Origin: Naegleria gruberi
Lineage: Eukaryota
DNA: 64,000 nucleotides
NCBI GenBank assembly: GCA_000004985.1
Contig: GG738866.1
Reading direction: 5' to 3' (one strand)
The notes beneath the pieces are model-generated. The model did no database searches, was not told where the DNA came from, and saw nothing but the letters and a program-made list of their open reading frames with translations. Shown here piece after piece: positions 21,108-57,457 of the stretch. Numbering within the stretch: the first letter of the stretch is position 1; every line of letters starts with the position of its first letter. The position numbers and the translations under genes are program-made.

Positions 21108-22976
21108 ATGGTAGAACAGAAAAAGAGAAAGAATGAAGACTCAGATTTATTTGTGAAAGAAAAGAAGCAGAAAAATAACGAGCCTTCCTCCGATCATGTT
21201 GGAAATCTTTTCAGTTCATCTTCCAGTTTACTTCGTCCATTTATTTATGAATCCGATCAGTTTCGTTTCTTTGTATTTAAATATCCATCTCCTTGTACCA
21301 AATTAGAATATTCACATGTTTCCAGCAAGTCATTCTTCATCAAAGTTACAATACAAGATGCTATTCCTATTGAAAATATATTAGAAACATTTCCATCAAT
21401 TATTACTAAAGGATTGAAGGAAAATACGAAACCAGAAGAAACTTTGTTGCATTCCGAAGCCATTCCCAACGATGTTTCTGTAGAGAGTATCAAATATGGA
21501 ATGTATAGAATGAAAGGCGATCATCTTGACGATAGGGTTTACATTATCATATTTGAAAAGAGCCAACGAGAAACTAATCTTCCAACACTTGACCATGATT
21601 ATTCCAAATTTATAACAGAATTGACATCCTCATATGGGAAAGAAATATTTTCTGATGATTTACTTTTTGAAATTCTTTCTTATTTAGATCAGAATTCAAT
21701 TATTCTAAATTGTTCCTTAATCTCCAAACAATGGTTGAAAATAATTCAAAAATCCTGTAAATTTAAATTCAAAGTTACAAGTTGGCGTTCTACCAACTTG
21801 ATGGGAGGTATTTTTTCTCCATGTTTTTCACAATTGCGAGTAGATGTTTGCAAGAACAATTTTTGTGACCAAGTGGTAAAGTTGAACAATTTAACAAATA
21901 TCAAATTTAGGACCACTAGTGGTGTTATGGATGTGTTGGATATAATCAAAGAAATGAAGCAAGTAACTTGGCTTGATATGAAGGGAGTGTCTATATTTAA
22001 AGATAGTTTTCTTAAGAAAATTGGTGAGCTGAGTCAATTGAAAACACTCGACATAGCCAATGCTGCTGGTGATAGGAGCAGATTTAGTAAGGGCATAAAA
22101 TATCTGGGAAACTTGATGAATTTATCTGAGCTTTATATCAACTCAAATGAAATTGGTGACAATGGCGCTGAAGATATTAGTGGAATGAAACAATTAACTA
22201 AACTTGACGTTTCTTCAAATGATATTACTACTAAAGGAGCCAAGCACATTAGTAAATTGAACAAACTAGTATCCCTAAAAATGGAGGAAAATATGATCGA
22301 TGCACAAGGAATTAAATATATTACCGATCAATTGAATCAATTAACAGAACTTGATATTGGTTCAAACGATCTTGGTGTATTGGGGGCAAAAGCAGTCAGT
22401 GAATTGTCCCAATTAACGTCACTGAGTATTGAAAACAATAATCTGCTCAACGAAGGAGCTGCTTATATCAGTAGATTACTGAATTTGACTGATCTTTGCA
22501 TTAATTCTAATCAAATTGATAGTGAAGGAGCCAAAGATATTATCAAATTGAAACAATTAACAACACTATTTATATCTGGCAACTCTCTTCTAGATGAAGG
22601 AGCCAAGTTAATTAGTGAGCTAAATAACTTAACCGTACTTGATATTTCAGACAATGAATTAACTGATGAAGGGGTAGAGCCAATCAGTAAATTGAAGCAA
22701 TTGAAGACACTTGAAATTGACGAAAATCAAATTAGTGATGAAGGAATAGAGTCAATTTGTGGACTCAATCAATTAACTGAGCTTAACATTGATTATAATC
22801 TCATATCTGCAGAAGGATTAAGTTCTATAAGCGGGAATGAGATTGGAGATGAAGGTGCAGAGATTATTGGTGACTTGACAAATTTGAAAGAGCTTACAGT
22901 AGACCAGAACTCAAGATCCAAGTACCATGAAATCTTGAAAACAAAATTACCATTATTAACGATCAAGAAAATTTAA
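21108..22976 (+). CDS. F-box/LRR protein (RNI-like leucine-rich repeats)
   Basis: ATG at 21108. F-box 'LLFEILSYLDQNSIILNCSLISKQWLKIIQ'. At least 12 tandem 24-aa LRRs of the form 'LxxLxLxxNxIxDEGAKxIS'. Confidence 0.65.
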   Translation: MVEQKKRKNEDSDLFVKEKKQKNNEPSSDHVGNLFSSSSSLLRPFIYESDQFRFFVFKYPSPCTKLEYSHVSSKSFFIKVTIQDAIPIENILETFPSIITKGLKENTKPEETLLHSEAIPNDVSVESIKYGMYRMKGDHLDDRVYIIIFEKSQRETNLPTLDHDYSKFITELTSSYGKEIFSDDLLFEILSYLDQNSIILNCSLISKQWLKIIQKSCKFKFKVTSWRSTNLMGGIFSPCFSQLRVDVCKNNFCDQVVKLNNLTNIKFRTTSGVMDVLDIIKEMKQVTWLDMKGVSIFKDSFLKKIGELSQLKTLDIANAAGDRSRFSKGIKYLGNLMNLSELYINSNEIGDNGAEDISGMKQLTKLDVSSNDITTKGAKHISKLNKLVSLKMEENMIDAQGIKYITDQLNQLTELDIGSNDLGVLGAKAVSELSQLTSLSIENNNLLNEGAAYISRLLNLTDLCINSNQIDSEGAKDIIKLKQLTTLFISGNSLLDEGAKLISELNNLTVLDISDNELTDEGVEPISKLKQLKTLEIDENQISDEGIESICGLNQLTELNIDYNLISAEGLSSISGNEIGDEGAEIIGDLTNLKELTVDQNSRSKYHEILKTKLPLLTIKKI

Positions 22977-33627: not shown

Positions 33628-34757
33628 TCAATAAATAAAGTTGTAATACTTGTTTGTTGCAAGTTCTGGTATTTCCTTCAATAGGTCATTCATGTACTTT
33701 CTATTATTCAAATATTTAGGAGCTATAAATTTTTCCAATGACAGATTTTCCTTACACACTTGGTATGCCTTAACGAGTGACATTTTGAAAATTTCCTCAT
33801 CTTCTCTAAACCAAAAAGGAATCTCATAGATATATTTTGTTTTTTGAATGCATCTCTTAACAATTTCTTCATCCTTTCTAAACTCATAAGGAACAAGGAA
33901 TAGTGGCAAATTCATTCCAACTAATTGATATACCAATTCTCTATTTTCTCTCATTACTTTTGGAAGTTCAGAATAGGCAAAGTAGTTTCTCCTAACAACT
34001 TCCTTAACAAATGAGAAATCATGTTGCAATCTCTCACTAATATATCCAACATTATTTGGAGAGGAAATACATGCTGATAGAGCAATCTGTCTATCATCGA
34101 GCATTTCCTTAGGAAGTTTGTAATATAATATTTTCAATTCTCGAATTTTCACATACAATTCCACAACTTGCTTATCATTTAAATATATTTCTGGAAGTTT
34201 GAATTCAAAATTATGGAAATATGAACTAACACTCTTCAGTACTCTCATTACAATATCTCGATCATTCTTCATTTCATCTGAAAACAATTTATAACATCTC
34301 GGACAAGATGTCACAGCTTTAAGACACACCCTCTTATCCTTCTTCAATTCATCACTCAAATGTACATAAAAGTAACCAAATTGTGAAACTGCTCTAATAG
34401 CAATTCGAATACTATTTCTCAATCGTTCAGAAATTTGCAAAAAAGTGTTTTCACACCTAATAAACCTCAACATGTGCCAAGCCACCAACTCATTATCCAC
34501 ATATTCTTTCGGAATCGTATAGTATCGAGGTAATTTCTTATAAGTATGCTTTCGGAATGATTTTAAAAATTCATACGATTTCTCATAATCATGCAAAAAT
34601 CGTTCCGATGCTTGTTTCCAAATGTTTTTCAATAGATTGGAAAGATTATCTGAATCAGAATGTGTATACTCATCATGATCATTTTTATTTGATCGGGTTG
34701 TGGTGGTGGTGGTGGTGGGCGGTGATGGGAGAAAATCATAGAGAATGAGTTGGACCA
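33628..34757 (-). CDS. DUF4116-repeat protein
   Basis: First true ATG at 34757 (track start at 34803 is ATT). Repeats 'ELKKDKRVCLKAVTSCPRCYKLFSDEMKNDRDIVMRVLKS', 'LDDRQIALSACISSPNNVGYISERLQHDFSFVKEVVRRNYFAYSELPKVMRENRELVYQLV'. Poly-Thr tract near N-terminus. Confidence 0.55.
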
Positions 34758-35118
34758 TTTTTTTTTGTAATGCAACTCGAATTTGCACTTTATATTGTGT
34801 CAATATTTATTTGAAACAATTTAAAGTCAAATGTGTTTTTGGTGTGAAAATCAATTTTTTGATTACCATTGATTCTGATAATGTTTAGTATTTTGAAATG
34901 GAAAAGGTTTATGGAGTGATACATGGAATGGTATTAGAATCTTGTGATTGGAATTTCATGAATTGTTACTCACAATTTCTTTCTTGCAAGTTCACACTTC
35001 TCACAGATTTATACTAGAAAGTTGAACCAACAGGTATTAATACATAATTTACATCTATCCCTCTTTAAAAATCATCCCTCAAAAACAACCAACCCAATCA
35101 AATACTTTACAAAAAAAA

Positions 35119-36148: not shown

Positions 36149-38099
36149 ATGAACTCCCATATCACCACTCTCATTCTCGTCGATTTCAAAATTGACACGA
36201 TCAACAACCAACTGCACAACTTGTTGAGGAATAAATTTTCCAATCAACAAAAAGGAAGACTTGTCTATTTAGAAAACAGAGAAAAATCATACAATTTTAT
36301 TCCGATAGAATTTACCAGAGATTTGGCATTTGTTTTGAAAATATTGGAAAGATTGAACGAGTATAATTCGTGTTGTACATTTGAAGAGTTGCTCAATCAT
36401 ATTCCGAATGGAATTTTACAAAATCCCAAAAGTTATTGCAAAATTATGTCAAATTTACATTGAAAAGTTTGGTTGTTTGGGAAATCAGTGGAATAATTTC
36501 ACACAATTATTTGCAAATAATAGAGAAATGGTCCTTGAAATTCTCAAATTGAATCCAAGTGCACTTCGATTTGTGTCGGCTGAATTTCAGAATGATTATG
36601 AGATTGTAATGACTGCTGTGAAAGTGAATGGATTTTCATTGAAATATGCTTCAGATATATTGAAGGGAAATAGACAAGTTGTAACTCAAGCTGTGATGAC
36701 TGATGGATTTGCACTTGATTTTGCATCTAGTGAATTGATGAATGATATAGATTTACAGAAAATGGCTATTCGAAACAATCCTAATATGTTTTCATGTCTT
36801 GTGAACAAGCTAACCATTTTTGAAATTGAAAATGAAGTTCTTGAACTTGCTCTTCATTTACATGGAAAATCCCTAGCTCTAATTCCAAACACTTTTCACA
36901 ATTACAGAGATCTTGTTTTACTAGCTGTCAAGAATGATGGTAAAGCTCTTTCACATGCCACAGAAACTTTGAAAGCAGATAGAGAAATTGTATGGGAAGC
37001 TGTATCTCAGAATGGCTTTGCATTATTCTATGCCTCTCCTGAACTCAAGAAGGATAGAGAAATTATTCTAAAAGCTCTAGAAACTTCGAGCACTTGCTAC
37101 CTCTCCTTGCCGATTGATTTTCAAGAAGATTTGGAAATTATTCAGCAAACTCTTCGGTATTTCCCCAATGCTCTTCAATTTATTCGTTCCACAAATTTGG
37201 ATATCCAATTCCTCACTTCTGTGGTAGAGAAAAATCCTCTCCTACTTAAGTATGCGTCTAGAGTGCGTAAGGATAAGAATTTAGTATTGAAATCAGTTGA
37301 ATTGGATGGCAATAATCTTCAGTATGCTGATTCGGAATTGAGACAAGATCCTGAATTGATCTTGAAAGCAGCTCAGCAAAATATTAAATCACTCGTATTT
37401 GCCAAAAATATGGGAAAGGAGCTCTTAATAGAGTTATCTGAAATGAATGGATTTTTACTTGATTATGTATGGAATCAACTTGGAGAATTAAAGACAGACA
37501 GAGATTTTATAATAGCCTGTCTCAAAAGAAATGGAAGGAACTTTATAGTTCTCGATCAATCAATGAGGGATGATAGAGAAATACTCAATATTGCATTAGA
37601 AACTTTTGGAACAGCCCTATACTATTCTGATAAGAGGTTTAGATATGAGTATGAGATGGTAAAGAAGGCGGTTCGAGATAGTCCCGATATTCATACCTCC
37701 ATTCCACGAGTTGTTATTGACAGAGAAATTGTCAAAACGATTCTTTCTGTAAAGGGGATTTTGTTTCATGAATTTTACAGGTTTAATAATGATATTGAGC
37801 TTGTCATGACAGCCGTCAAACAAAATGGGAAGAGTTTTAAATATGCCAGTGAAAATATAGTAAGGGATCCAGAGGTGCAGACGCTAGTTGTAAAAGAAAG
37901 TGGGTTTTGCTTTCAACCAAATGCAGAACTATTTCAATCACGAATGGAACATTGTTACTTTGGTGCTTATCAATATGAACATTTACCATTCTATCCATTC
38001 AATAATTATCCAATGGAATATTTCTACAGTTACAACACATACAATTCAGAAGTTAGATTACCAGATTACAGTGAACTTTTAAAACCTTTACAAAAATAA
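36149..38099 (+). CDS. DUF4116-repeat protein (more than 10 repeats); probably 2 exons
   Basis: ORFs 36149..36463 and 36381..38099 overlap in different frames. A phase-1 58-nt intron 36375..36432 (GTACAT...CCAAAAG) or a 97-nt intron 36371..36467 would join them. Repeats 'AEFQNDYEIVMTAVKVNGFSLKYASDILKGNRQVVTQAVMTDGFALDFASSELMNDIDL', 'LKADREIVWEAVSQNGFALFYASPELKKDREIILKA', among others. Confidence 0.5.
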
Positions 38100-42295: not shown

Positions 42296-42763
42296 ATGTT
42301 CATTCCAAGCGAAAGCCGTGTTGCTGTTATGCAATACTTGTTCAAGGAAGGTGTTGTCGTCGCCAAGAATGATTTGAGATTAAAGTCTCACCCACACATT
42401 GAAGGTGTTAAGAATTTGCACGTCGTCAAATTCATGCAAGGTTTCGCTGCTAGAGGTTTGGTTAAGCAACAATATGCTTGGAGACATTACTATTGGTTCT
42501 TGACTAACAATGGTGTCAACTTCTTGAGAGAATACTTGAACTTGCCAACCACTGTCGTCCCAGCTACCCACAAGATGACTGGTAAGAAGATCCAAATCAT
42601 CAGCACTGATAGACCAAAGAAGCAATTCAAGGCTGGCGAAAGACCACAATACAGAAATGACAGAAAGACTGCTCCAAAGGAAGGTGAAACCGCTGTCCCA
42701 CAAGGAACTGCTACTGAAAAGCCAAAGACTGGTGGTAGAGGTAAAGGATTCCAACAACAATAA
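42296..42763 (+). CDS. RPS10: 40S ribosomal protein S10 (eS10)
   Basis: ATG at 42296. 'FKEGVVVAKNDLRLKSHPHIEGVKNLHVVKFMQGFAARGLVKQQYAWRHYYWFLTNNGVNFLREYLNLPTTVVPATHK'. Strongly biased high-expression codons (GGT, TTG, AGA, CCA, AAG, TTC, GTC). Confidence 0.9.
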   Translation: MFIPSESRVAVMQYLFKEGVVVAKNDLRLKSHPHIEGVKNLHVVKFMQGFAARGLVKQQYAWRHYYWFLTNNGVNFLREYLNLPTTVVPATHKMTGKKIQIISTDRPKKQFKAGERPQYRNDRKTAPKEGETAVPQGTATEKPKTGGRGKGFQQQ

Positions 42764-42930: not shown

Positions 42931-44058
42931 ATGTTTCATTCCATCTTCTCATATTTGTGGTGGATTTTCCCAACCCGATCCGAAAATCTTTATGCATCTT
43001 TATTGAAGAATAGCATTGATGAGAATGACTTCAAAGCAGGAATATTGGAAAGTCTCTCATTGGATATTGTGATCGAGATTATATCCTTTCTCGATCGGTT
43101 TGAATTTATCAGATTGTTTTCAGGAGTGAATAAATCCTTCTATTCATTAACAGAGGATAAAAGATTCTGGTTAATATTAGACCGTCATGATGAGAAAATT
43201 CCTACTGTTACACAACCAAATTCAAACTTCCAACCAATACTATGTTTTTCAAGAATTGAAGAATATCTCAAATCTTCTGAAAAGACAAGTTTCAAAACCA
43301 TTTACAAGAACCTTCTCCTCTCCCCTACCCCACACGAATTGAATCCAGTCTTTAAAAATCGTTCTGCAATTTATAATGTTGACACAGATCTCATTCCTGA
43401 AACAAAGAAATATATTGCCCTCTTTGGACAATCAAATTCTGGAAAATATTCTCTGGGAATTTGCTCTACGAGAGGTTATTCAAGGCCTAGTGATCAGAAG
43501 AGTGTTATCAAGATGGATTTCTTCTTCAAAAGAGTACTGATCAAGATGGAAAATCTATCCTCTCATCATAATGGAAATATTAGTGGAATATGCCATACGA
43601 ATTTTGTAATTGAATGTTTTGGACATCCTGATTTTCATTTGAAATTTAGAAATAATGGAATGGTTAGCATGAATAGTTTATCACTGGGTAGTAGTCTTTC
43701 AATCATGTTTACAATTGATTTATCAGTGAAAAATAATTATTTTCTCTCTGATTTATCCAAAATTTTGAATCCTTTATTTCAAGTTGATATTTCCAAAGAT
43801 TCTCCTCAGAAAATTAGAAAGAAAATGGGTAATAATAGACTCTGTATAATTGGAACCAAGAGTGATATTAGACAATTGAGTGAACAATCTCTGGCAAGTC
43901 AACTGATGAAAGTTATTGACACAAGTTGTGAATTTTGGGATCAATCCATCATTTACATTGAAACAAGTTCCAAAAATCGTGAAAATATGGATCATCCCTA
44001 TCTATTCTTTTCTCAATCCAACATTCATTCCCAAATCCAACCAAACTCATCCCTGTAA
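42931..44058 (+). CDS. F-box protein with degenerate P-loop GTPase-like domain
   Basis: ATG at 42931. F-box 'LDIVIEIISFLDRFEFIRLFSGVNKSFYSL'. P-loop-like 'ALFGQSNSGKYSLG'. 'CIIGTKSD' in the NKxD position. 'ETSSKN' in the SAK position. No DxxG. Confidence 0.5.
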   Translation: MFHSIFSYLWWIFPTRSENLYASLLKNSIDENDFKAGILESLSLDIVIEIISFLDRFEFIRLFSGVNKSFYSLTEDKRFWLILDRHDEKIPTVTQPNSNFQPILCFSRIEEYLKSSEKTSFKTIYKNLLLSPTPHELNPVFKNRSAIYNVDTDLIPETKKYIALFGQSNSGKYSLGICSTRGYSRPSDQKSVIKMDFFFKRVLIKMENLSSHHNGNISGICHTNFVIECFGHPDFHLKFRNNGMVSMNSLSLGSSLSIMFTIDLSVKNNYFLSDLSKILNPLFQVDISKDSPQKIRKKMGNNRLCIIGTKSDIRQLSEQSLASQLMKVIDTSCEFWDQSIIYIETSSKNRENMDHPYLFFSQSNIHSQIQPNSSL

Positions 44059-48880: not shown

Positions 48881-49732
48881 ATGTCACCACACAATGATTA
48901 CACTACCATTCCAATAGAAGAATCAGAGATTAATTTACATTACTCACAAACTAATTCTTCCGAAACATTAAATTCATCATTATTAAATCTCCCGCCAGAA
49001 TTATTAACATTAATTATTGAATATTTATCAAATGATAATGTTGCACTGCTGTCATTCGAATTACTCGGAATAACTGCACGAGAAGTAATGAATAATCAAG
49101 TGTGGGAAAAATTATTTAGAAATCAACAAATTTCGTCCAAGTTTTTGGGTTTCGACTGGTTTATTTTACCGAATCAGTATCTTGTTGAACTGGTCAAGAG
49201 AAAATCAGAAAATCCACACAAAATTGCATTTTATTATCATTTCTACATGAATGGAATTATTACACAATTTCTAGATTATGAAATTTCGGATATAATTTAC
49301 AATTTCAGATATTCGAATAGAAGTAACGTATTTCAAATTGAAAAATCATTAATCCCATTAAGGAAATATTTTGAAGAAATGAATAGGTTTCATTTCTATT
49401 CAAATAGAAGACCAATTAATATTTTACTTTACAAAACTCAATTAGAAATTGAAATGAAACGTTGGATTAATTTCAAGAAGAAACCAGGCGAAATACTTCA
49501 CCAATACCGTCGCCACACCTATACCTCTTGCTTTATCCTCCTAGTAGTAAGCCCAATTATTGGAATTGGCTCTTTAGGAATGATTTTGGTTGGTGGAATT
49601 AGTTTCAAATATCCAACGTTTAATTCAGAACTTGGCGCCATCTCACTCATCATTATTGGATGTTTCATTTTGTTGATATCAGTTGTGGGATTACTTGTTT
49701 CAACCAAGTACATTTGTTCTTACAGAGATTAA
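48881..49732 (+). CDS. F-box protein with C-terminal double transmembrane tail
   Basis: ATG at 48881. F-box 'LPPELLTLIIEYLSNDNVALLSFELLGITAREVMNNQVWEKLF'. C-terminal 'FILLVVSPIIGIGSLGMILVGGISF...AISLIIIGCFILLISVVGLLV'. Confidence 0.5.
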   Translation: MSPHNDYTTIPIEESEINLHYSQTNSSETLNSSLLNLPPELLTLIIEYLSNDNVALLSFELLGITAREVMNNQVWEKLFRNQQISSKFLGFDWFILPNQYLVELVKRKSENPHKIAFYYHFYMNGIITQFLDYEISDIIYNFRYSNRSNVFQIEKSLIPLRKYFEEMNRFHFYSNRRPINILLYKTQLEIEMKRWINFKKKPGEILHQYRRHTYTSCFILLVVSPIIGIGSLGMILVGGISFKYPTFNSELGAISLIIIGCFILLISVVGLLVSTKYICSYRD

Positions 49733-49747
49733 CTTCCATGAATTGGA

Positions 49748-51093
49748 CTAGACCTGATTACTTGATTGTTCTTGGTTTTTTGGTTCTTCATTAGTTTCTG
49801 GTAGATTAGGTAAATTGTCGCCAACAAGTTCCTCATCGTTCTTGTCTTTTGATTGATCTTGATTTGTAACCTCACTAGTTTCTGGTAGGGATGGTAAATT
49901 TTCTTCAATATTCGATTTGCATTTCGATAAACCCTCACTTGGTTCAATTGACTGAACTTTCATTTCACTCTTCTCTGATCGTTCTGATTTCTTAGCAGTA
50001 CTTCTTGCTGACTTGTGATCATGAGATGTGGTATCTAAATTCATCTCCTTAATAGCATGTTCTGCCCTCACAAAAAGTGGATAAAACATCAACAAGCTCA
50101 ACACTGCAAATATCAAAACTGCAAGACAACTGAAAAAGTGCCAAACAACTTTCAGAATTGACTTGTCAGAACCAACGGCAGATGCAACACCAGCTGCAAT
50201 TAATTGACATAGAATGCATAGGATTAATCCAACCAATAATCCAAAAGTTACAATGAATGGATTTGAATAATTTTCCTGTTTTTTAAGGTTTGGATTTCTT
50301 TGTAATTGAATCGTATTGTTTCGTCCAATTGTACGAATCACCACAACACCAGAATAGATGGCAAAGCAAGTATCGAAAATAAGCATTCCACCAGCAAAAA
50401 CAAAACAGATATAATAGGCAATATTAGAATTAGCTTTCGAAACGAAACCCATGTTATAGAGGAAGAATAAAAGAGCTGCAACTAACACTACAAGAAACAT
50501 TAACACAACAAAGAAGCCAAAGATGATATTGGAGAGAATGCTCACATGCTTGAATTGCTTTTTCGACATGGCTCTAATCATGACAGCTGTCTTCCAACTA
50601 CAAGTTTCGAATAATTTAGCATTAAAAGAGAAACTTACAAGATCATTTTGACGTAATATACAATAATGTACAAGACTACATAATTTGAAAACATTAAGAA
50701 TGTAGTCACTGATGCAAAAAAGTTCCAAACAATAAAGTATCCTCTATCGAATATTGTTTCTCCCTTCTCCAGTCGAAACCTCACATTAATATACATGATA
50801 TCAACCATTGTTCTTGAAAGTAGATTCAAGCATCCAATACCAACGAAAACACCGACCATCAGAAAGAGAATTTTTGCATTCCTTTTCAATTCAAGCTTAT
50901 TTCGAATAGTAATATAGTACAGCATTGTAAAGAAACTCATATAAAATATCGAATAGGCAAACAAGTACAATGTACTATTCCCTATCGAAACAGAATTGAC
51001 CCACACTGGTAAAACATAATCCACCGAGGTAATATGACATTCAGACCATCTGAAGTATATTCGAAAGGGAGTAAAGATAATGACGCCATTTTT
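49748..51093 (-). CDS. Multi-pass (about 7 TM) membrane protein with acidic/Ser-rich C-terminal tail; at least 2 exons
   Basis: 41-nt intron 50598..50638 (GTAAGT...CTTGTAG), phase 2, joins ORF 50635..51024 to ORF 49748..50728 (...YYVKMIF|WKTAVMIRAMSKKQ...). ATG at 51093 is in another frame, so a further tiny intron or a different start is likely; 5' end uncertain. Confidence 0.5.
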
Positions 51094-51475: not shown

Positions 51476-51547
51476 TCCCGTGTAGTCCAATGGCTAGGAT
51501 ACCTGGCTTTCACCCAGGAGGTCCGGGTTCAATTCCCGGCATGGGAG
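51476..51547 (+). tRNA. tRNA-Glu (anticodon UUC)
   Basis: 72-nt cloverleaf. Acceptor TCCCGTG/CATGGGA. Anticodon loop CTTTCAC. T-arm GGGTTCAATTCCC (B box). A-box-like TAGTCCAATGG. Downstream T4 run (Pol III terminator) at 51553-51556. Confidence 0.85.
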
Positions 51548-51641: not shown

Positions 51642-52610
51642 CTATTTTACAAGTGGTTTGACGATTGGTTTTGTTGGCTTCTTACATGTCTTTCTCTTGA
51701 TACAAATCTTCTTCTTGATTGACTTGCAGCACTTCTTCTTTCCACCAACTAATTTGAATTTCTTACAAATCTTCTTTCCCTTTGAACGTTTCAAACACTT
51801 CTTATAATACTTCTTCTTGATACATCTTGGAGGAATGACAATTGACTTGGCACAATACTTCTTCTTGTTATATTTGACACATTTGGAGAGAGTCTTCTTG
51901 TGTTTACAGAATTTGATGGTCTTATGCTTGGCGCAGAAGAATTTCTTCTTAATGAGACAACACTTCTTGAAAGATTTTCTTTCCTTGCAGTATTTAACCT
52001 TCTTATACTTGGCACATTTCTTTGCCCAGGAGACAATCTTGCACTTTTTAACATATCTACATTTGGCAACCTTCTTATTGTAAGAATCAACAGTGTACTT
52101 GTCGCAGACCTTCTTCTTTTCACACTTCTTGATTGGAACCTTCTTGAATTTCTTACAGACCTTCTTGAAACCCTTCTTGAAGCACTTATTGATAATCTTG
52201 TGCTTGGCACAGAACTTCTTGAAACCCTTCTTGATGCAAATCTTCTTAGTTCCATAAGAATCACAAACTTTCCAATACTTCTTCTTGGCACATCCAACAA
52301 TCTTGTATGCATGCAAGACACACTTCTTTGTTGGCTTACTGTACTTGTCACATTTGGAATATTTCTTATGTTTAAGACATTTACCAGCACCGACAATTGC
52401 ATATTGATCACAGACCTTCTTTTGACCAACGAGTTTGTGTTTCAAACACTTCTTAATCCACTTGTGCTTTAAACATTTTCTCTTACAAATTCTTGGCTTG
52501 TGATACTTGTCAACTACTGGAGGATTGGTTTGATAGCTGTCACTTGCTTGAACTGAAAGGATTGCAAGCAAGAGTAGAATTGCAATTGAAAAGATTAGAT
52601 TTGCTTTCAT
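51642..52610 (-). CDS. Secreted, extremely Lys/Cys-rich repeat protein (about one-third Lys, about one-eighth Cys)
   Basis: ATG at 52610 ('MKANLIFSIAILLLLAILSVQASDS', signal peptide), TAA at 51642. Body is a degenerate tandem of about 9-10-aa units with KC(L/A)KHK, CxKK and KKxC spacing. Other-frame ORFs 51791..52429, 51817..52083, 51900..52472 are shadows of this repetitive DNA. Confidence 0.55.
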   Translation of the reverse strand: MKANLIFSIAILLLLAILSVQASDSYQTNPPVVDKYHKPRICKRKCLKHKWIKKCLKHKLVGQKKVCDQYAIVGAGKCLKHKKYSKCDKYSKPTKKCVLHAYKIVGCAKKKYWKVCDSYGTKKICIKKGFKKFCAKHKIINKCFKKGFKKVCKKFKKVPIKKCEKKKVCDKYTVDSYNKKVAKCRYVKKCKIVSWAKKCAKYKKVKYCKERKSFKKCCLIKKKFFCAKHKTIKFCKHKKTLSKCVKYNKKKYCAKSIVIPPRCIKKKYYKKCLKRSKGKKICKKFKLVGGKKKCCKSIKKKICIKRKTCKKPTKPIVKPLVK

Positions 52611-53011: not shown

Positions 53012-54018
53012 TTAAAACATAGAATCTTGTTTTTGTGTGCGTCTGACTAAAATATTTGGATTGTGCTGAAAGAGTGAGGTTTCAAAATTTGTTTTTCTAT
53101 TTTGGTGGTTTTCAATATTTTCTGATTGGTCTTTCCTGTTTTGGTTCTCAATATCAAACTCACAACACAAGAAACACATGAAACAAATCGCAATAATGTT
53201 GATTGATATTACAATACCATTGATAATACTACAAGCTATAATAGCTCCATTTGGCTTTTTGTTTTTATCAACTGTTCCAAACACAGCTAACAATCCAAAA
53301 TCTACAAAAACTGCCAAGAATGAAAGAAGCACAATCCAATAATTATAAAAAAAACCCATTCTTTGTTTGTCCTTAGTTAAAAACTTGATAAAATCAGAAA
53401 CCCAATGAAGGATGAAAGTACCAACAATTGTCCATCCAAATATTGAACTAATTGATTCATTATACTGTATAAAATTATATGATAACTTGATGAGCCATCT
53501 ATTTGTAAACTCCATAAGAACCTAGTCAACCATATTCCAATTACAACAATATGAAGGTGAGGATTATTTTCTTTAAAGCCATCAAATTTCTTCTTATATT
53601 CCTCAAAGTGGTTTGAAATAACGTTTCGACAAACTTTTCGTCCTTTCTTTTGCAAAAGTGGAAAAAGAGCATGAAACACACTAATAGAACCAAAACATCA
53701 AAAATGACTGTTTCAAAATTGTAAATTGAAGAACCAAACCAAATAGCAGAATTGATAATTAGCATTACCAAGCAGCCATATCCAATCTTATGTGGGTGAT
53801 CATAATCAATACCTAGAAAGATAGTGAAAATAAAGAAAACAGTGAACAATAAACTAAAGATGGCACCCATACTGTCAGTAGAATCAATATTTTGCTGATC
53901 ACCACTTGCAATAATATTAAACAGATCCAAAATGGTTCTATTCTTCGGCTTGATATTTACAAGAACAACTGTAACACAATTAAGTGCTAGCATAATACTA
54001 GAGAAGGACGCTTTGCCC
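53012..54018 (-). CDS. Multi-pass membrane protein, paralogue of 49748..51093; multi-exon with uncertain joins
   Basis: ATG at 54018 ('MGKASFSSIMLALNCVTVVLV...'). Three consecutive minus-strand ORFs in different frames (53541..54101, 53377..53679, 53012..53515). Hydrophobic-segment pattern and C-terminal acidic tail parallel the 49748 gene. Confidence 0.4.
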
Positions 54019-54605
54019 ATTTTTTTGTTATGGTTTACACGTGTTGTGTAGATGTAACGAAAATTTTCAGTGTTGATGCATGTGAATGATCCTCCACACA
54101 TGTTGTTGATGATTGTTATGGTGTAACAACGCCGCGGCTGCTATAAGAAATTACATTGCGTTAATGAAGAGTCGTTTTTTTACCATTTTTTTTCTTCATG
54201 AATTTTACAATTATTTTCACAATCGTATGAAAGAAGAGCGACAATTTTTATATGAATTGAAATTAAGGAATTACACCTGTTTTTAAGGGTACATACATTT
54301 GGAGAATCAACTTTAAGGTTTAATTTCGGAGGATCAAATACGATTGATTATTGATTCATTTGTTGAAGGAATGGCAGAACCAAAGAAGTGGTTCAGCAGC
54401 CATGAAAATTAAGGTTGTGGTTCCACCAGAGGGAAATCACTCTACATGAATTGGTACCTCGATCCTTGTGAGTCTTTCCACTTTTCAGTATATGTGGATA
54501 ACGAATGATACGTAAAGGCTGGTCCTTGCATTGCGTACAGAAAAGGTTTCTAACACCAACTTGGTTAATATCAACGAATTACAAAGTTTCTGACATGGTT
54601 TGAAA

Positions 54606-55817
54606 TCACTGGAATAGTTTTTTAAATACATCTATTAATTTTGAAAGCATATGAAGTGAATAATCGAGTAGATCATCGTGCACCTGCTCAATCTTTCTGT
54701 AATTGAAATTTTTTAGATGGGAGAATGAATGTTGAGAAATTGAGCAATGAAATCTACGAATATCATCTGCAGAGCTCAATTCAAATTGTAATTCTCTCAA
54801 ATTCTTGAAAACTTGCTTGCCTATCAGAATTTTAACATGATTCAATCTTAGTAGAACATTTCCAAACCTTAATACTTTTAACTGCTCTAAATTGTCCAAT
54901 TGATTGAGGAAAAGTTCAATAGATGTATAATTATTAGATACATTATATAAATTTTCAAGAGTAATTTCCTTCAATTTGGAAAATTTTGAATTACAAATAG
55001 TTTCCAATATTTGTAAATTAATATGATATGATAACTTCAATATTTCAATATTAGAACACAATTCAGACATTAGAGTATTTACAATTGATAAATCGCTATA
55101 AATATTGGCCAGTGATAATTTTTTAAGGTTTCCAAAATTGGAAAATGTATCTGAATTATTCCATTCATGAATAATACATGAATTCAAAGATAAACTTTCA
55201 ATATTTTTGAAACATTCTTTCTCTGATAATGATGATGAACTAAGCATAAAACTTCCAAGTTCCAGACGTTTTAAACTTGCTAAATAAGGACTATCAAACA
55301 TTTCAATATCGAAATAATGCTCTCCATAAACTTCATCTGAAATTATCAAAGTTTCAAGATTTTTCATTCGACTTCCAACAATCAATTCAATTCCGCACAT
55401 TGGATTTCTCCAATATTGATCATATGGATCGTGTGTTCTTAATTCCAAATAGTTCAATTCGAAAGTTTCAACAATCATTTTCAACAGTTTCGTATGAGTT
55501 GAATATCCAATGATTGTAACTCCTCTCACATTTCTACAATTCTCTCCTTTCAATTTTTCAATCCACTTATCGACAATTCTTTCGTCAACATCTTGTACTT
55601 CGCTATCGAACCAAACATACGAATCTTCCACATTAATCGTTAAAAACAGTGGAATTTTCAAAGAATGTGAGTACCAATTCTTATTCACACGATTACAATT
55701 TTTCAAAATTTGCTCTCCGCTCATGTAATTTAATATTAAATTTAATATTAAATCATCAAAAATTGCATCACCGGATTCAGGTGAACATTTCATGATGTAT
55801 GTTTTCATTTTTTCCAT
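54606..55817 (-). CDS. F-box / LRR (FBXL-like) protein
   Basis: ATG at 55817 verified. F-box 'AIFDDLILNLILNYMSGEQILKNCNRVNKNWYSHS'. Following L-rich repeats 'LKKLSLANIYSDLSIVNTLMSELCSNIEILKLSYHINLQILETICNSKFSKLKEITLENL'. Confidence 0.55.
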   Translation of the reverse strand: MEKMKTYIMKCSPESGDAIFDDLILNLILNYMSGEQILKNCNRVNKNWYSHSLKIPLFLTINVEDSYVWFDSEVQDVDERIVDKWIEKLKGENCRNVRGVTIIGYSTHTKLLKMIVETFELNYLELRTHDPYDQYWRNPMCGIELIVGSRMKNLETLIISDEVYGEHYFDIEMFDSPYLASLKRLELGSFMLSSSSLSEKECFKNIESLSLNSCIIHEWNNSDTFSNFGNLKKLSLANIYSDLSIVNTLMSELCSNIEILKLSYHINLQILETICNSKFSKLKEITLENLYNVSNNYTSIELFLNQLDNLEQLKVLRFGNVLLRLNHVKILIGKQVFKNLRELQFELSSADDIRRFHCSISQHSFSHLKNFNYRKIEQVHDDLLDYSLHMLSKLIDVFKKLFQ

Positions 55818-55881: not shown

Positions 55882-57039
55882 TTAATCACTGAAACATACA
55901 CTAGCGTGATATTCATAGAATTGATAAAGAACTACTTCGAAGGGATTTTCCATATTGTTGGGATTGACAATTAAGGAAATAATATAGCTATCAATGGCAT
56001 CACCTAAAAGTTGTGAATTGAAGGATCGTTCAACTTTCATAAATGTTGTGTAACTTGTAATGTTTGGATCTTCATTCCATTTCGCCTTTGTATTTTCATT
56101 AAATTCGTCCAAAATTTCCAAAGTGTTCAAGTTATAAGGACAACATTCAGCAATGTTATCGTAAAATGTAATTCGATGAAGATCATGCACATAGTAATTG
56201 ATTCGAAATAGAAAGTTCAACATCATTTGAAGAAGGTATTGATTGTGTAAAATTCCACATTCATGACATGTCAAAACTAGTTCTCTAATCCAATGAATGA
56301 AATTTTTAGCACCTTTCATTTGGTTTCCATTGGAAGGGGCAACTTCAAATTGATTATACGAAAGGCAAATTACATTTCTCACTAAATTGTGTTCGTATGA
56401 AGTGTCATCATTGGGGATGCCAACGAGCTCTGTACAATTCTCATTATGGTAGAAACCCTCTTCCAACTTTTGAATGAGAATATATTCAGAACGATTCTTT
56501 TTGTTTCTTCCTGTAAACAGTTGGTCAGCTGAGGAAAATTTTAATCCCAAATGATTACTATATCCTTCGTCATCACATTCCTGATGCCAAACCATTGAAT
56601 AATCTGCAAAATAATTTAAATTACCTATCTCTACATCCTTAGAATTATTCCTCTTGGTCACATTAATGCAATCACAAAGTATCCACTTGCTCATTTGAAA
56701 AATCTTATCATTTTCTATATTGAATGAAGGTTTACATTTGTAAAACTTGAATTCATAACGAGGAATCATCATTCCTTCATTAATAGCTGCAACACATTTA
56801 GAAAGAAACACAATAAATGGCATTGCACGTTGGTAATCAATCAAATGATGATCAATCTTCAAGTTTTCTGAGTGAGAATTATTCAAACTCTTGTTTAAAT
56901 GTTGAAAGTACAAATAAAAGTGTTTTGTAATTAAATCTCTCCATTCTGTGCACACGAATTTGCAATTTAAAATTTGTTTCCATGATAAATAGCCATCAAA
57001 TAGAATGGTCAGCAGAATGTCCTGATTGTTGGCTATCAT
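55882..57039 (-). CDS. F-box-like protein with Cys/His-rich body
   Basis: ATG at 57039 verified. 'DILLTILFDGYLSWKQILNCKFVCTEWRDLITKHFY'. 385 aa. Confidence 0.5.
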   Translation of the reverse strand: MIANNQDILLTILFDGYLSWKQILNCKFVCTEWRDLITKHFYLYFQHLNKSLNNSHSENLKIDHHLIDYQRAMPFIVFLSKCVAAINEGMMIPRYEFKFYKCKPSFNIENDKIFQMSKWILCDCINVTKRNNSKDVEIGNLNYFADYSMVWHQECDDEGYSNHLGLKFSSADQLFTGRNKKNRSEYILIQKLEEGFYHNENCTELVGIPNDDTSYEHNLVRNVICLSYNQFEVAPSNGNQMKGAKNFIHWIRELVLTCHECGILHNQYLLQMMLNFLFRINYYVHDLHRITFYDNIAECCPYNLNTLEILDEFNENTKAKWNEDPNITSYTTFMKVERSFNSQLLGDAIDSYIISLIVNPNNMENPFEVVLYQFYEYHASVCFSD

Positions 57040-57385: not shown

Positions 57386-57457
57386 TCCCGTGTAGTCCAA
57401 TGGCTAGGATACCTGGCTTTCACCCAGGAGGTCCGGGTTCAATTCCCGGCATGGGAG
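57386..57457 (+). tRNA. tRNA-Glu (anticodon UUC), second copy identical to 51476..51547
   Basis: Identical 72-nt sequence. T5 terminator at 57463-57467. Confidence 0.85.

Follow-up and report, generated by a model that had tools for sequence, protein, structure and literature searches.

Extensins are secreted, rod-like, Lys-rich and basic proteins with short cross-linkable Tyr motifs, and are thought to scaffold walls through acidic polysaccharide. The apicomplexan proteins COWP and OWP have a signal peptide and a Cys every ~10-12 residues; they are disulfide-bonded components of resistant-stage walls, encoded by a multigene family confined to their lineage. Other described systems, including θ-defensins, tachyplesin, protegrin and arenicin, are secreted, cationic antiparallel hairpins with parallel cross-strand disulfide rungs and hydrophobic residues beside the Cys. 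Here we describe a gene whose product is predicted to combine those same hairpin features, located at 51642..52610 on the minus strand of a 64,000-nucleotide stretch of Naegleria gruberi DNA (contig GG738866.1 of NCBI GenBank assembly GCA_000004985.1); this whole stretch is referred to as the window. The best overall explanation, to which we assign a probability of about 0.45, is that a real gene for a secreted Lys- and Cys-rich protein would yield a hairpin rod held by a cystine ladder, with a role in a wall or matrix. Beyond the reality of the gene, everything proposed for the family rests on in silico inference.

The gene is a single-exon open reading frame (ORF) of 322 codons plus TAG, extending from an ATG at 52610..52608, in an A-rich context, to the stop codon at 51644..51642. 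The coding sequence (CDS), its signal peptide and two accompanying shadow ORFs are as follows.

51642..52610, minus strand: complete CDS of the Lys/Cys-rich protein, from the ORF list and an end-to-end alignment with the paralog NAEGRDRAFT_67458
52545..52610, minus strand: putative cleavable signal peptide, residues 1-22 (MKANLIFSIAILLLLAILSVQA, then SD), from the sequence and a predicted helix at residues 3-17
51791..52429, minus strand: shadow ORF in another frame, from the ORF list, a by-product of AAG/TGT-rich coding sequence
51900..52472, plus strand: shadow ORF, from the ORF list, with the same compositional origin

An earlier note on this DNA, made from the sequence alone, had regarded the Lys/Cys frame as a genuine coding gene, allowing that another frame or the opposite strand, as represented by the shadow ORFs, might turn out to be the gene. 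Comparative data uphold the Lys/Cys frame. An ortholog on Logan contig L002 (SRR32051688) shares 79% amino acid identity with the window protein, with dS about 1.0, dN 0.14 and dN/dS 0.14, and mismatches at the three codon positions number 14/15/45 and 3/3/17 in two ungapped blocks, showing purifying selection on the gene as judged from these substitutions. The flanks of the two genes are not alignable. Paralog alignments conserve the Cys positions of the window protein, and the coding frame has no stops across the gene, compared with 8-28 in each of the other five frames. Analogous shadow ORFs are present in L002 while selection acts on the Lys/Cys frame, so they recur for a compositional reason and are not genes. 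Together, the ortholog dN/dS, the excess of third-position mismatches, the stop counts and the recurrence of shadow ORFs settle the question of frame, and we regard the gene as real with near certainty. The ortholog itself, at 290-1264 of L002, is broken into ORFs of 114 and 198 amino acids, split near window residues 105-118; either a frameshift from assembly or loss of the gene to a pseudogene in that strain would account for the break.

The 322-residue protein contains 107 Lys (33%) and 32 Cys (10%), with 7 Asp and 2 Glu. After putative cleavage at SVQA|SD, the mature chain of 300 residues is 35.3% Lys and 10.7% Cys, with 113 Lys and Arg against 9 Asp and Glu, an isoelectric point of 10.2 and a net charge of ~+104; Arg makes up 2%, Pro 3.3%, and 31 residues are aromatic. 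The earlier estimates of about one-third Lys and almost no acidic residues are thus accurate, whereas Cys, put at one-eighth, is closer to one-ninth to one-tenth. The N-terminus is organised like a signal peptide, with n, h and c regions (MK, a hydrophobic core of 18 residues and V-Q-A), an arrangement that is kept in all full-length homologs and is followed in every one of them by D(S/T)Y, and the C-terminal tail has no hydrophobic end of the glycosylphosphatidylinositol-anchor or transmembrane type. The signal-peptide-like sequence surmised earlier is therefore borne out, and on this basis the protein very probably takes the secretory route.

These properties bear on whether the protein is instead a metallothionein-like metal binder or an intracellular packer of polyanions, whether protamine- or histone-like or a counter-ion of polyphosphate in acidocalcisomes. 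High Cys with high Lys is a metallothionein trait too, and so extreme a charge would neutralise DNA or polyphosphate, but the signal peptide, the 31 aromatic residues and the lack of any Pfam match all oppose such roles, as does a mirrored Cys pattern (described below) that points to structural disulfides. Typical metallothioneins are cytosolic, with clustered CxC, CxxC or CC motifs, ~25-33% Cys and few aromatics; in the window protein the Cys are mostly isolated at 9-residue intervals, with two CC pairs only and no CxC or CxxC clusters. Metal binding, one of the roles suggested earlier, thus becomes unlikely for a protein on the secretory route. Protamines and linker histones were rejected on the signal-peptide-like N-terminus, the excess of Lys (35%) over Arg (2%) and the absence of a Pfam domain (H1 being a winged-helix protein), in agreement with the earlier note. 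We consider this whole group of explanations very improbable.

Cys residues recur with a clear period. Exactly 9 residues separate successive Cys in 14 of the 31 intervals, the remainder being mostly 8-12, and the Cys autocorrelation at lag 9 is 16, compared with 3.25 +/- 1.64 in 2000 shuffled sequences (maximum 11 at any lag). The underlying 9-residue unit reads C, hydrophobic, basic, aromatic/basic, K/G, x, x, basic, hydrophobic, such that each predicted rung would be edged by small hydrophobic clusters amid Lys. The previous description as a tandem-repeat protein holds for this ~9-residue periodicity, but not for the organisation of the chain, in which the Cys are mirror-symmetric and a long hairpin is predicted. 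We rejected a recent tandem array: Tandem Repeats Finder returned only a 12-bp x 2.8 stretch in the gene, with no DNA-level array, and the similarity of the N-terminal to the C-terminal half was lost under composition-corrected statistics. No further copies of the gene were found within the window.

We propose that the mature protein is one giant antiparallel β-hairpin with ~125 residues per arm and ~15 cross-strand disulfide rungs, a probable fold that is strongly suggested by an AlphaFold2 (AF2) model together with three sequence tests, namely Cys pairing, matched strand breakers and mirrored insertions and deletions (indels). With only 4 sequences, AF2 reached a predicted local distance difference test (pLDDT) score of 44 and already drew the hairpin at 145-169/184-209; with 21 family sequences, pLDDT was 81.7, with 161 residues at 90 or above and a predicted template modelling (pTM) score of 0.35. 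The strand breaks in the two arms of the model mirror each other about i+j ~350. The predicted parts, all on the minus strand, are given below.

52488..52544, minus strand: unstructured N-terminal tail, residues 23-41, with DSY (24) and DKY (34); pLDDT <50 for residues 19-41
52104..52487, minus strand: left arm of the predicted β-hairpin, residues 42-169, with 15 Cys; AF2 strands 45-61, 64-73, 78-90 and 94-169
52062..52103, minus strand: hairpin tip loop, residues 170-183 (DKYTVDSYNKKVAK), Cys-free, with two DxY motifs; a loop in both AF2 runs
51684..52061, minus strand: right arm, residues 184-309, with 17 Cys (15 in predicted rungs, plus C218 and C295); AF2 strands 184-259, 263-275, 279-288 and 291-307
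51645..51683, minus strand: basic, Pro-rich C-terminal tail, residues 310-322 (KKPTKPIVKPLVK); pLDDT <50 for residues 313-322

Pairing the Cys about the tip gives 15 pairs with i+j = 349-353. From the tip outwards, the predicted rungs are 169-184, 163-190, 152-199, 143-208, 134-217 (or 218), 125-226, 116-235 and 107-244 (rungs 1-8), followed by 97-253, 87-263, 78-272, 67-282, 55-294, 46-303 and 42-309 (rungs 9-15). A constant i+j recurs in homologs, with 14 rungs each in P0003, P0024, P0025 and P0005; P0011, a far less basic protein, has 12. The irregular Cys spacings (6, 10, 12, 13, 17-21) occur at mirrored positions. The mirrored order is favoured over permuted orders at p = 1e-4 to 5e-4 (P0003: p = 0.03), values that are indicative only, given that the homologs are mutually related and the rung sets were chosen by an optimiser; direct order fits worse. 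An antiparallel layout places LVGQ opposite GGVL, IVGAG opposite KGKS and KP opposite PP, matching Gly and Pro breakers across the arms. All three left-arm indels relative to P0003, at 54 (+1), 60 (-3) and 74 (-2), have partners of the same sign at 299 (+1), 287 (-4) and 278 (-1). In the model, the three matched Gly/Pro kinks would segment a rod ~35-40 nm long if extended.

Another architecture seems quite unlikely to us, either a β-solenoid with 18-residue coils or an intermolecular polymer (cross-β or antiparallel dimer) with interchain Cys bridges. Solenoid coils could accommodate the 9- and 18-residue periodicity and the pTM is low, but in each of two independent runs AF2 drew uninterrupted 76-residue strands and only one turn, at 170-183, the Cys spacing order is mirrored and not direct, and the indel-prone, Cys-free tip lies exactly at the centre of symmetry. 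The nearest shapes found by Foldseek were likewise long stem hairpins, those of pore-forming toxins, although these were non-significant (E at least 0.04, template modelling score (TM) 0.05-0.12).

Several observations weigh against a monomeric disulfide-laddered hairpin. An antiparallel intermolecular dimer would give identical i+j symmetry, and a single full-length nest of rungs was not obtained for P0008 or P0021. The odd 9-residue spacing means that successive rungs alternate between hydrogen-bonded and non-hydrogen-bonded cross-strand sites, and disulfides at hydrogen-bonded sites are normally disfavoured. The spare Cys are unconserved, C295 being Phe in the ortholog and P0003 having a single Cys at 217/218, which also weakens the idea of polymerisation through free Cys.

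The hairpin would carry putative cross-link or attachment motifs at its extremities. Two DxY motifs of the window protein (24, 34) lie in its N-terminal tail and two (170, 175) at the tip, the latter in a loop that is indel-prone in homologs, and in some paralogs such motifs make up repeated C-terminal tails; by these positions, the motifs sit at both ends of the predicted rod. Tandem (V/I)D(S/T)YKP(P)K tails are present in P0025 (365-396, as KVDTYKPPK x4), P0005 (344-379), P0018 (46-79) and P0017 (78-99), and are lacking in the window protein. In appearance, these paralog tails look like Lys/Tyr/Pro adhesive or cross-linking decapeptides.

At the level of sequence, our searches show a small orphan family confined to two genera, Naegleria and Willaertia, and to relatives from environmental sequences. 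Among 1.84 billion representative proteins, a profile search (cut-off E≤1e-3) matched 18 representatives, all belonging to this family and originating from Naegleria, Willaertia or unassigned environmental sequences, and word-indexed searches added a few further members. Similarity within the family ranges from E-values of 1e-130 to 1e-10, with conserved Cys positions and basic composition, and the window protein belongs to it by full-length similarity, Cys positions, signal peptide and basic composition. The named members, all annotated as hypothetical, are NAEGRDRAFT_67458, NAEGRDRAFT_64980, NAEGRDRAFT_66117, NAEGRDRAFT_76199 and the long form NAEGRDRAFT_57793 in N. gruberi, FDP41_004030 in N. 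fowleri, C9374_009239 in N. lovaniensis and ABK040_005866 in Willaertia magna; the others are metagenome sequences from soil or freshwater. Each Naegleria genome has 4-5 paralogs. Net charges of the members and fragments examined range from +20 to +105, with the window protein at the extreme.

Searches beyond the family were negative. Neither the window protein nor any of six homologs matched a Pfam family, and profile and mature-protein searches of the PDB gave no meaningful match, with no chain at E≤1. The exact window protein has no entry in a collection of 15 billion sequences, exact look-ups of P0001-P0003 were likewise empty, and a metagenome scan with the family alignment gave no confirmed relative. 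Nothing informative was found in the genomic context of the paralogs (contigs L001, L003 and L004). Antistasin-like Cys-rich secreted repeat proteins occur in Naegleria and Willaertia and, among Heterolobosea, are restricted to these genera (PMC12482156). We tried and rejected membership of that family: there was no match to PF02822 (IPR004094), and the accessions and signature peptides of the Lys/Cys-rich family are absent from the tables of that paper, including Table S3.

Two kinds of family model differ from the window protein in organisation. In the closest reference entry, NAEGRDRAFT_76199 (P0002), the last 137 residues are 96% identical to the window protein's C-terminal portion (window 51654-52109), so that it holds the right arm only; its N-terminus is an unrelated SAM/PB1 sequence. 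This N-terminus occurs nowhere in the 64-kb window, so the model is probably chimeric, or alternatively represents a rearranged allele or a paralog. In the long paralogs P0027, P0026 and P0015 (~700-740 residues), residues ~100-370 form ~40-residue repeats of the pattern CP-x6-8-C ... G ... C-x3-C. This N-terminal module had no Pfam, PDB or homolog match, and we read it as a second uncharacterised Cys-rich domain.

Codon usage sets the gene apart from its surroundings. The GC content at third codon positions is 0.49, compared with 0.24-0.35 in neighbouring genes, AAG makes up 76% of Lys codons (44% in neighbouring genes) and TTC 91% of Phe codons (40%). ATC, GTC, GAC and CAC are enriched, and ATA, GTG, CTG and AGG are unused. 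The only comparable bias in the window is that of the gene for ribosomal protein S10e (RPS10; 42296-42763, plus strand; PF03501, E 5e-38), which served as an internal reference for high expression, and the short paralogs on other contigs show a similar bias relative to their own neighbours. Codon usage that resembles RPS10 and departs from the neighbours suggests that the gene is highly expressed, through translational selection.

We tentatively favour a function for the window protein as a wall or matrix scaffold. The protein would be produced abundantly, oxidised in the endoplasmic reticulum and exported. Outside the cell, it would act as a rigid polycationic rod binding electrostatically to polyanions, such as acidic polysaccharide of the wall or matrix, and could be fixed covalently through spare Cys or terminal Tyr motifs. 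On this view, the cyst wall or surface coat would contain it as a structural or cementing element, extensin-like in function but built on a cystine-ladder β-ribbon. A polycationic matrix or wall glue was also among the roles proposed earlier, and is the best functional guess of those. A structural role is favoured by the low dN/dS, by Cys intervals that are kept exactly between orthologs of N. gruberi and N. fowleri, by the suitability for networks of a rod whose two ends bear putative motifs for cross-linking or attachment, by the basic character of the entire family despite variation in sequence, and by the presence of periodic-Cys proteins in resistant-stage walls of other protists.

More specific versions of this proposal carry less weight. 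That a monomeric ribbon of 35-40 nm, with ~15 rungs and >100 positive charges, is a self-assembling cyst-wall or coat scaffold of undescribed architecture is a rather doubtful idea. More speculatively, and as a matter of arithmetic, a rung period of ~3.0-3.1 nm would match three cellobiose or chitobiose repeats (1.03 nm each), placing the rod in register with a microfibril. The scaffold proposal also has points against it: its polyanionic partner in the Naegleria cyst wall is an inferred assumption, the preference for AAG that contributes to the expression argument could arise partly because poly(A) tracts are avoided where a messenger RNA encodes so much Lys, and searches of the literature on the Naegleria cyst wall, encystment transcriptomes, proteomics, the locus tags and Lys/Cys-rich proteins yielded no mention of the family.

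A different use of the same charge and disulfides, and the main rival to the scaffold, would be antimicrobial. Naegleria feeds on bacteria, and membrane-active proteins, whether secreted or lysosomal, are used by amoebae. A bacteriolytic polycation acting in food vacuoles or the medium, as a giant analogue of disulfide-stapled β-hairpin peptides, would accord with the signal peptide, the extreme positive charge, the predicted cross-strand disulfides with hydrophobic neighbours and the abundance hinted at by codon bias. However, host-defence peptides evolve fast, and neither a dN/dS of 0.14 nor Cys spacing so deeply conserved across species is typical of them; a 300-residue chain that is ~30% hydrophobic, with no continuous hydrophobic face, appears poorly suited to membrane insertion. 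The terminal DxY repeat tails of paralogs have no obvious role in killing, and no homology to antimicrobial peptide families was found in Pfam or the PDB, leaving this reading unlikely. One form of it, the disulfide-knotted antimicrobial polyprotein suggested earlier, loses further ground because each Cys is predicted to pair across the two halves of the protein, and cutting the chain into units would destroy such a fold.

We also considered a surface adhesive or cement that would glue trophozoites or cysts to negatively charged substrates. The mature protein is rich in Lys (35%), the K/Y/P-rich tails of paralogs (KVDTYKPPK x4 in P0025) resemble adhesive decapeptide repeats, and Lys-rich and Cys-rich proteins occur in flatworm temporary adhesives (PMC9229212). 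The window protein nevertheless lacks a Tyr-rich C-terminal tail, and no homology to known adhesives was found in Pfam or the PDB. As a separate explanation this is improbable, and it overlaps the wall or matrix scaffold instead of excluding it.

The surrounding window is eukaryotic nuclear DNA of N. gruberi-like character, whose closest protein matches come from N. gruberi. It has a GC content of 33% and long, intron-poor ORFs, with genes including Gar1/Naf1, AP5B1, E1, Ras/Roc, DUF4116, F-box/LRR and RPS10. A tRNA-Glu(UUC) gene (51476-51547, plus strand) is convergent with the Lys/Cys ORF and lies 94 nucleotides from its stop codon, confirming its reported proximity with a small correction to the distance (95 bp). 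An identical tRNA-Glu(UUC) gene is located 5.9 kb away at 57386-57457 (plus strand). About 50 nucleotides upstream of both copies are largely conserved (ATTTCAT..G..AAA.TTTC.TAATGAAT.TAA), with the downstream sequences diverging after a T-run; the upstream block could act as a promoter element for RNA polymerase III, or the conservation could stem from duplication of a small unit.

The genes flanking the Lys/Cys gene, at 49748-51024 and 53012-54101 (both minus strand), encode multi-pass membrane proteins, as reported earlier, but their supposed paralogy is not supported, as no mutual similarity is detectable. Each appears as a pair of ORFs, overlapping or adjacent, that differ in frame, and therefore probably has one short intron. 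Neither matched a Pfam family, the only sub-threshold match being TMEM170 for 53012-53515. F-box or F-box-LRR-like genes were identified at 48881-49732 (plus strand), 54606-55817 (minus), 55882-57039 (minus), 21108-22976 (plus) and 42931-44058 (plus), three of them within 8 kb of the Lys/Cys gene; the set looks like a lineage-expanded family. Two DUF4116-repeat genes, at 33628-34803 (minus) and 36381-38099 (plus), are divergent and 1.6 kb apart, and the second contains 11 repeats (E 5e-110).

If the proposed fold is correct, it represents an extreme of simple design, with >100 residues per arm, no hydrophobic core, rigidity from a disulfide ladder and a coat of Lys. A natural nanoscale polycationic rod of this kind would be of interest to research on protein folds and biomaterials. 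Trypsin would cut so Lys-rich a protein to di- and tripeptides, making it invisible to standard proteomics, which may explain how an apparently highly expressed family went unnoticed.

Comparison with known systems places the family at a distance from each of them. The analogy to extensins is one of function only, and extends to basic charge, probable secretion and candidate Tyr cross-link motifs (DxY at the predicted rod ends), but extensins form their rod as a glycosylated polyproline-II helix of Ser-Hyp4 repeats with almost no Cys, whereas the window protein has abundant Cys and a predicted β-ribbon. No SPPPP/SP4 motif was found in it, Pro is scarce, and Pfam showed no homology to extensins. 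COWP and OWP are not polycationic and are built from defined Type I/II repeat domains, in contrast to the polycationic window protein, which showed no sequence match to them in the Pfam scans or the profile search. Mussel foot proteins, sandcastle-worm cement and flatworm adhesives are likewise high in Lys, some with Cys and Tyr, and bind negatively charged surfaces electrostatically, but are metazoan and show no homology.

Among structures, lysenin, aerolysin, anthrax PA and iota/CDTb contain very long two-stranded stem hairpins, as does our model, which accounts for their being the only solved structures that Foldseek placed near it. Unlike the model, the toxin hairpins lack a disulfide ladder; their hydrophobic and polar residues alternate, and they come together as barrels. 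Toxins of this class combine an amphipathic stem hairpin with globular receptor-binding or cap domains, and we rejected membership of the β-pore-forming toxins, there being no significant structural similarity at the scores given above. Cystine-ladder peptides are closer in design, but have 17-25 residues and 1-3 rungs spaced 2-4 residues apart, compared with ~125 residues per arm and ~15 rungs 9 residues apart in the window protein. Such peptides are released from precursors and target membranes, whereas the mature window chain is 300 residues long and uses Lys rather than Arg; searches of the PDB and Pfam found no sequence homology between the two, and the window gene is under strong purifying selection. 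At the level of family and of predicted fold, the orphan family has no described counterpart, its modelled likeness to the θ-defensin cystine ladder being one in principle only, at a scale more than 10 times larger.

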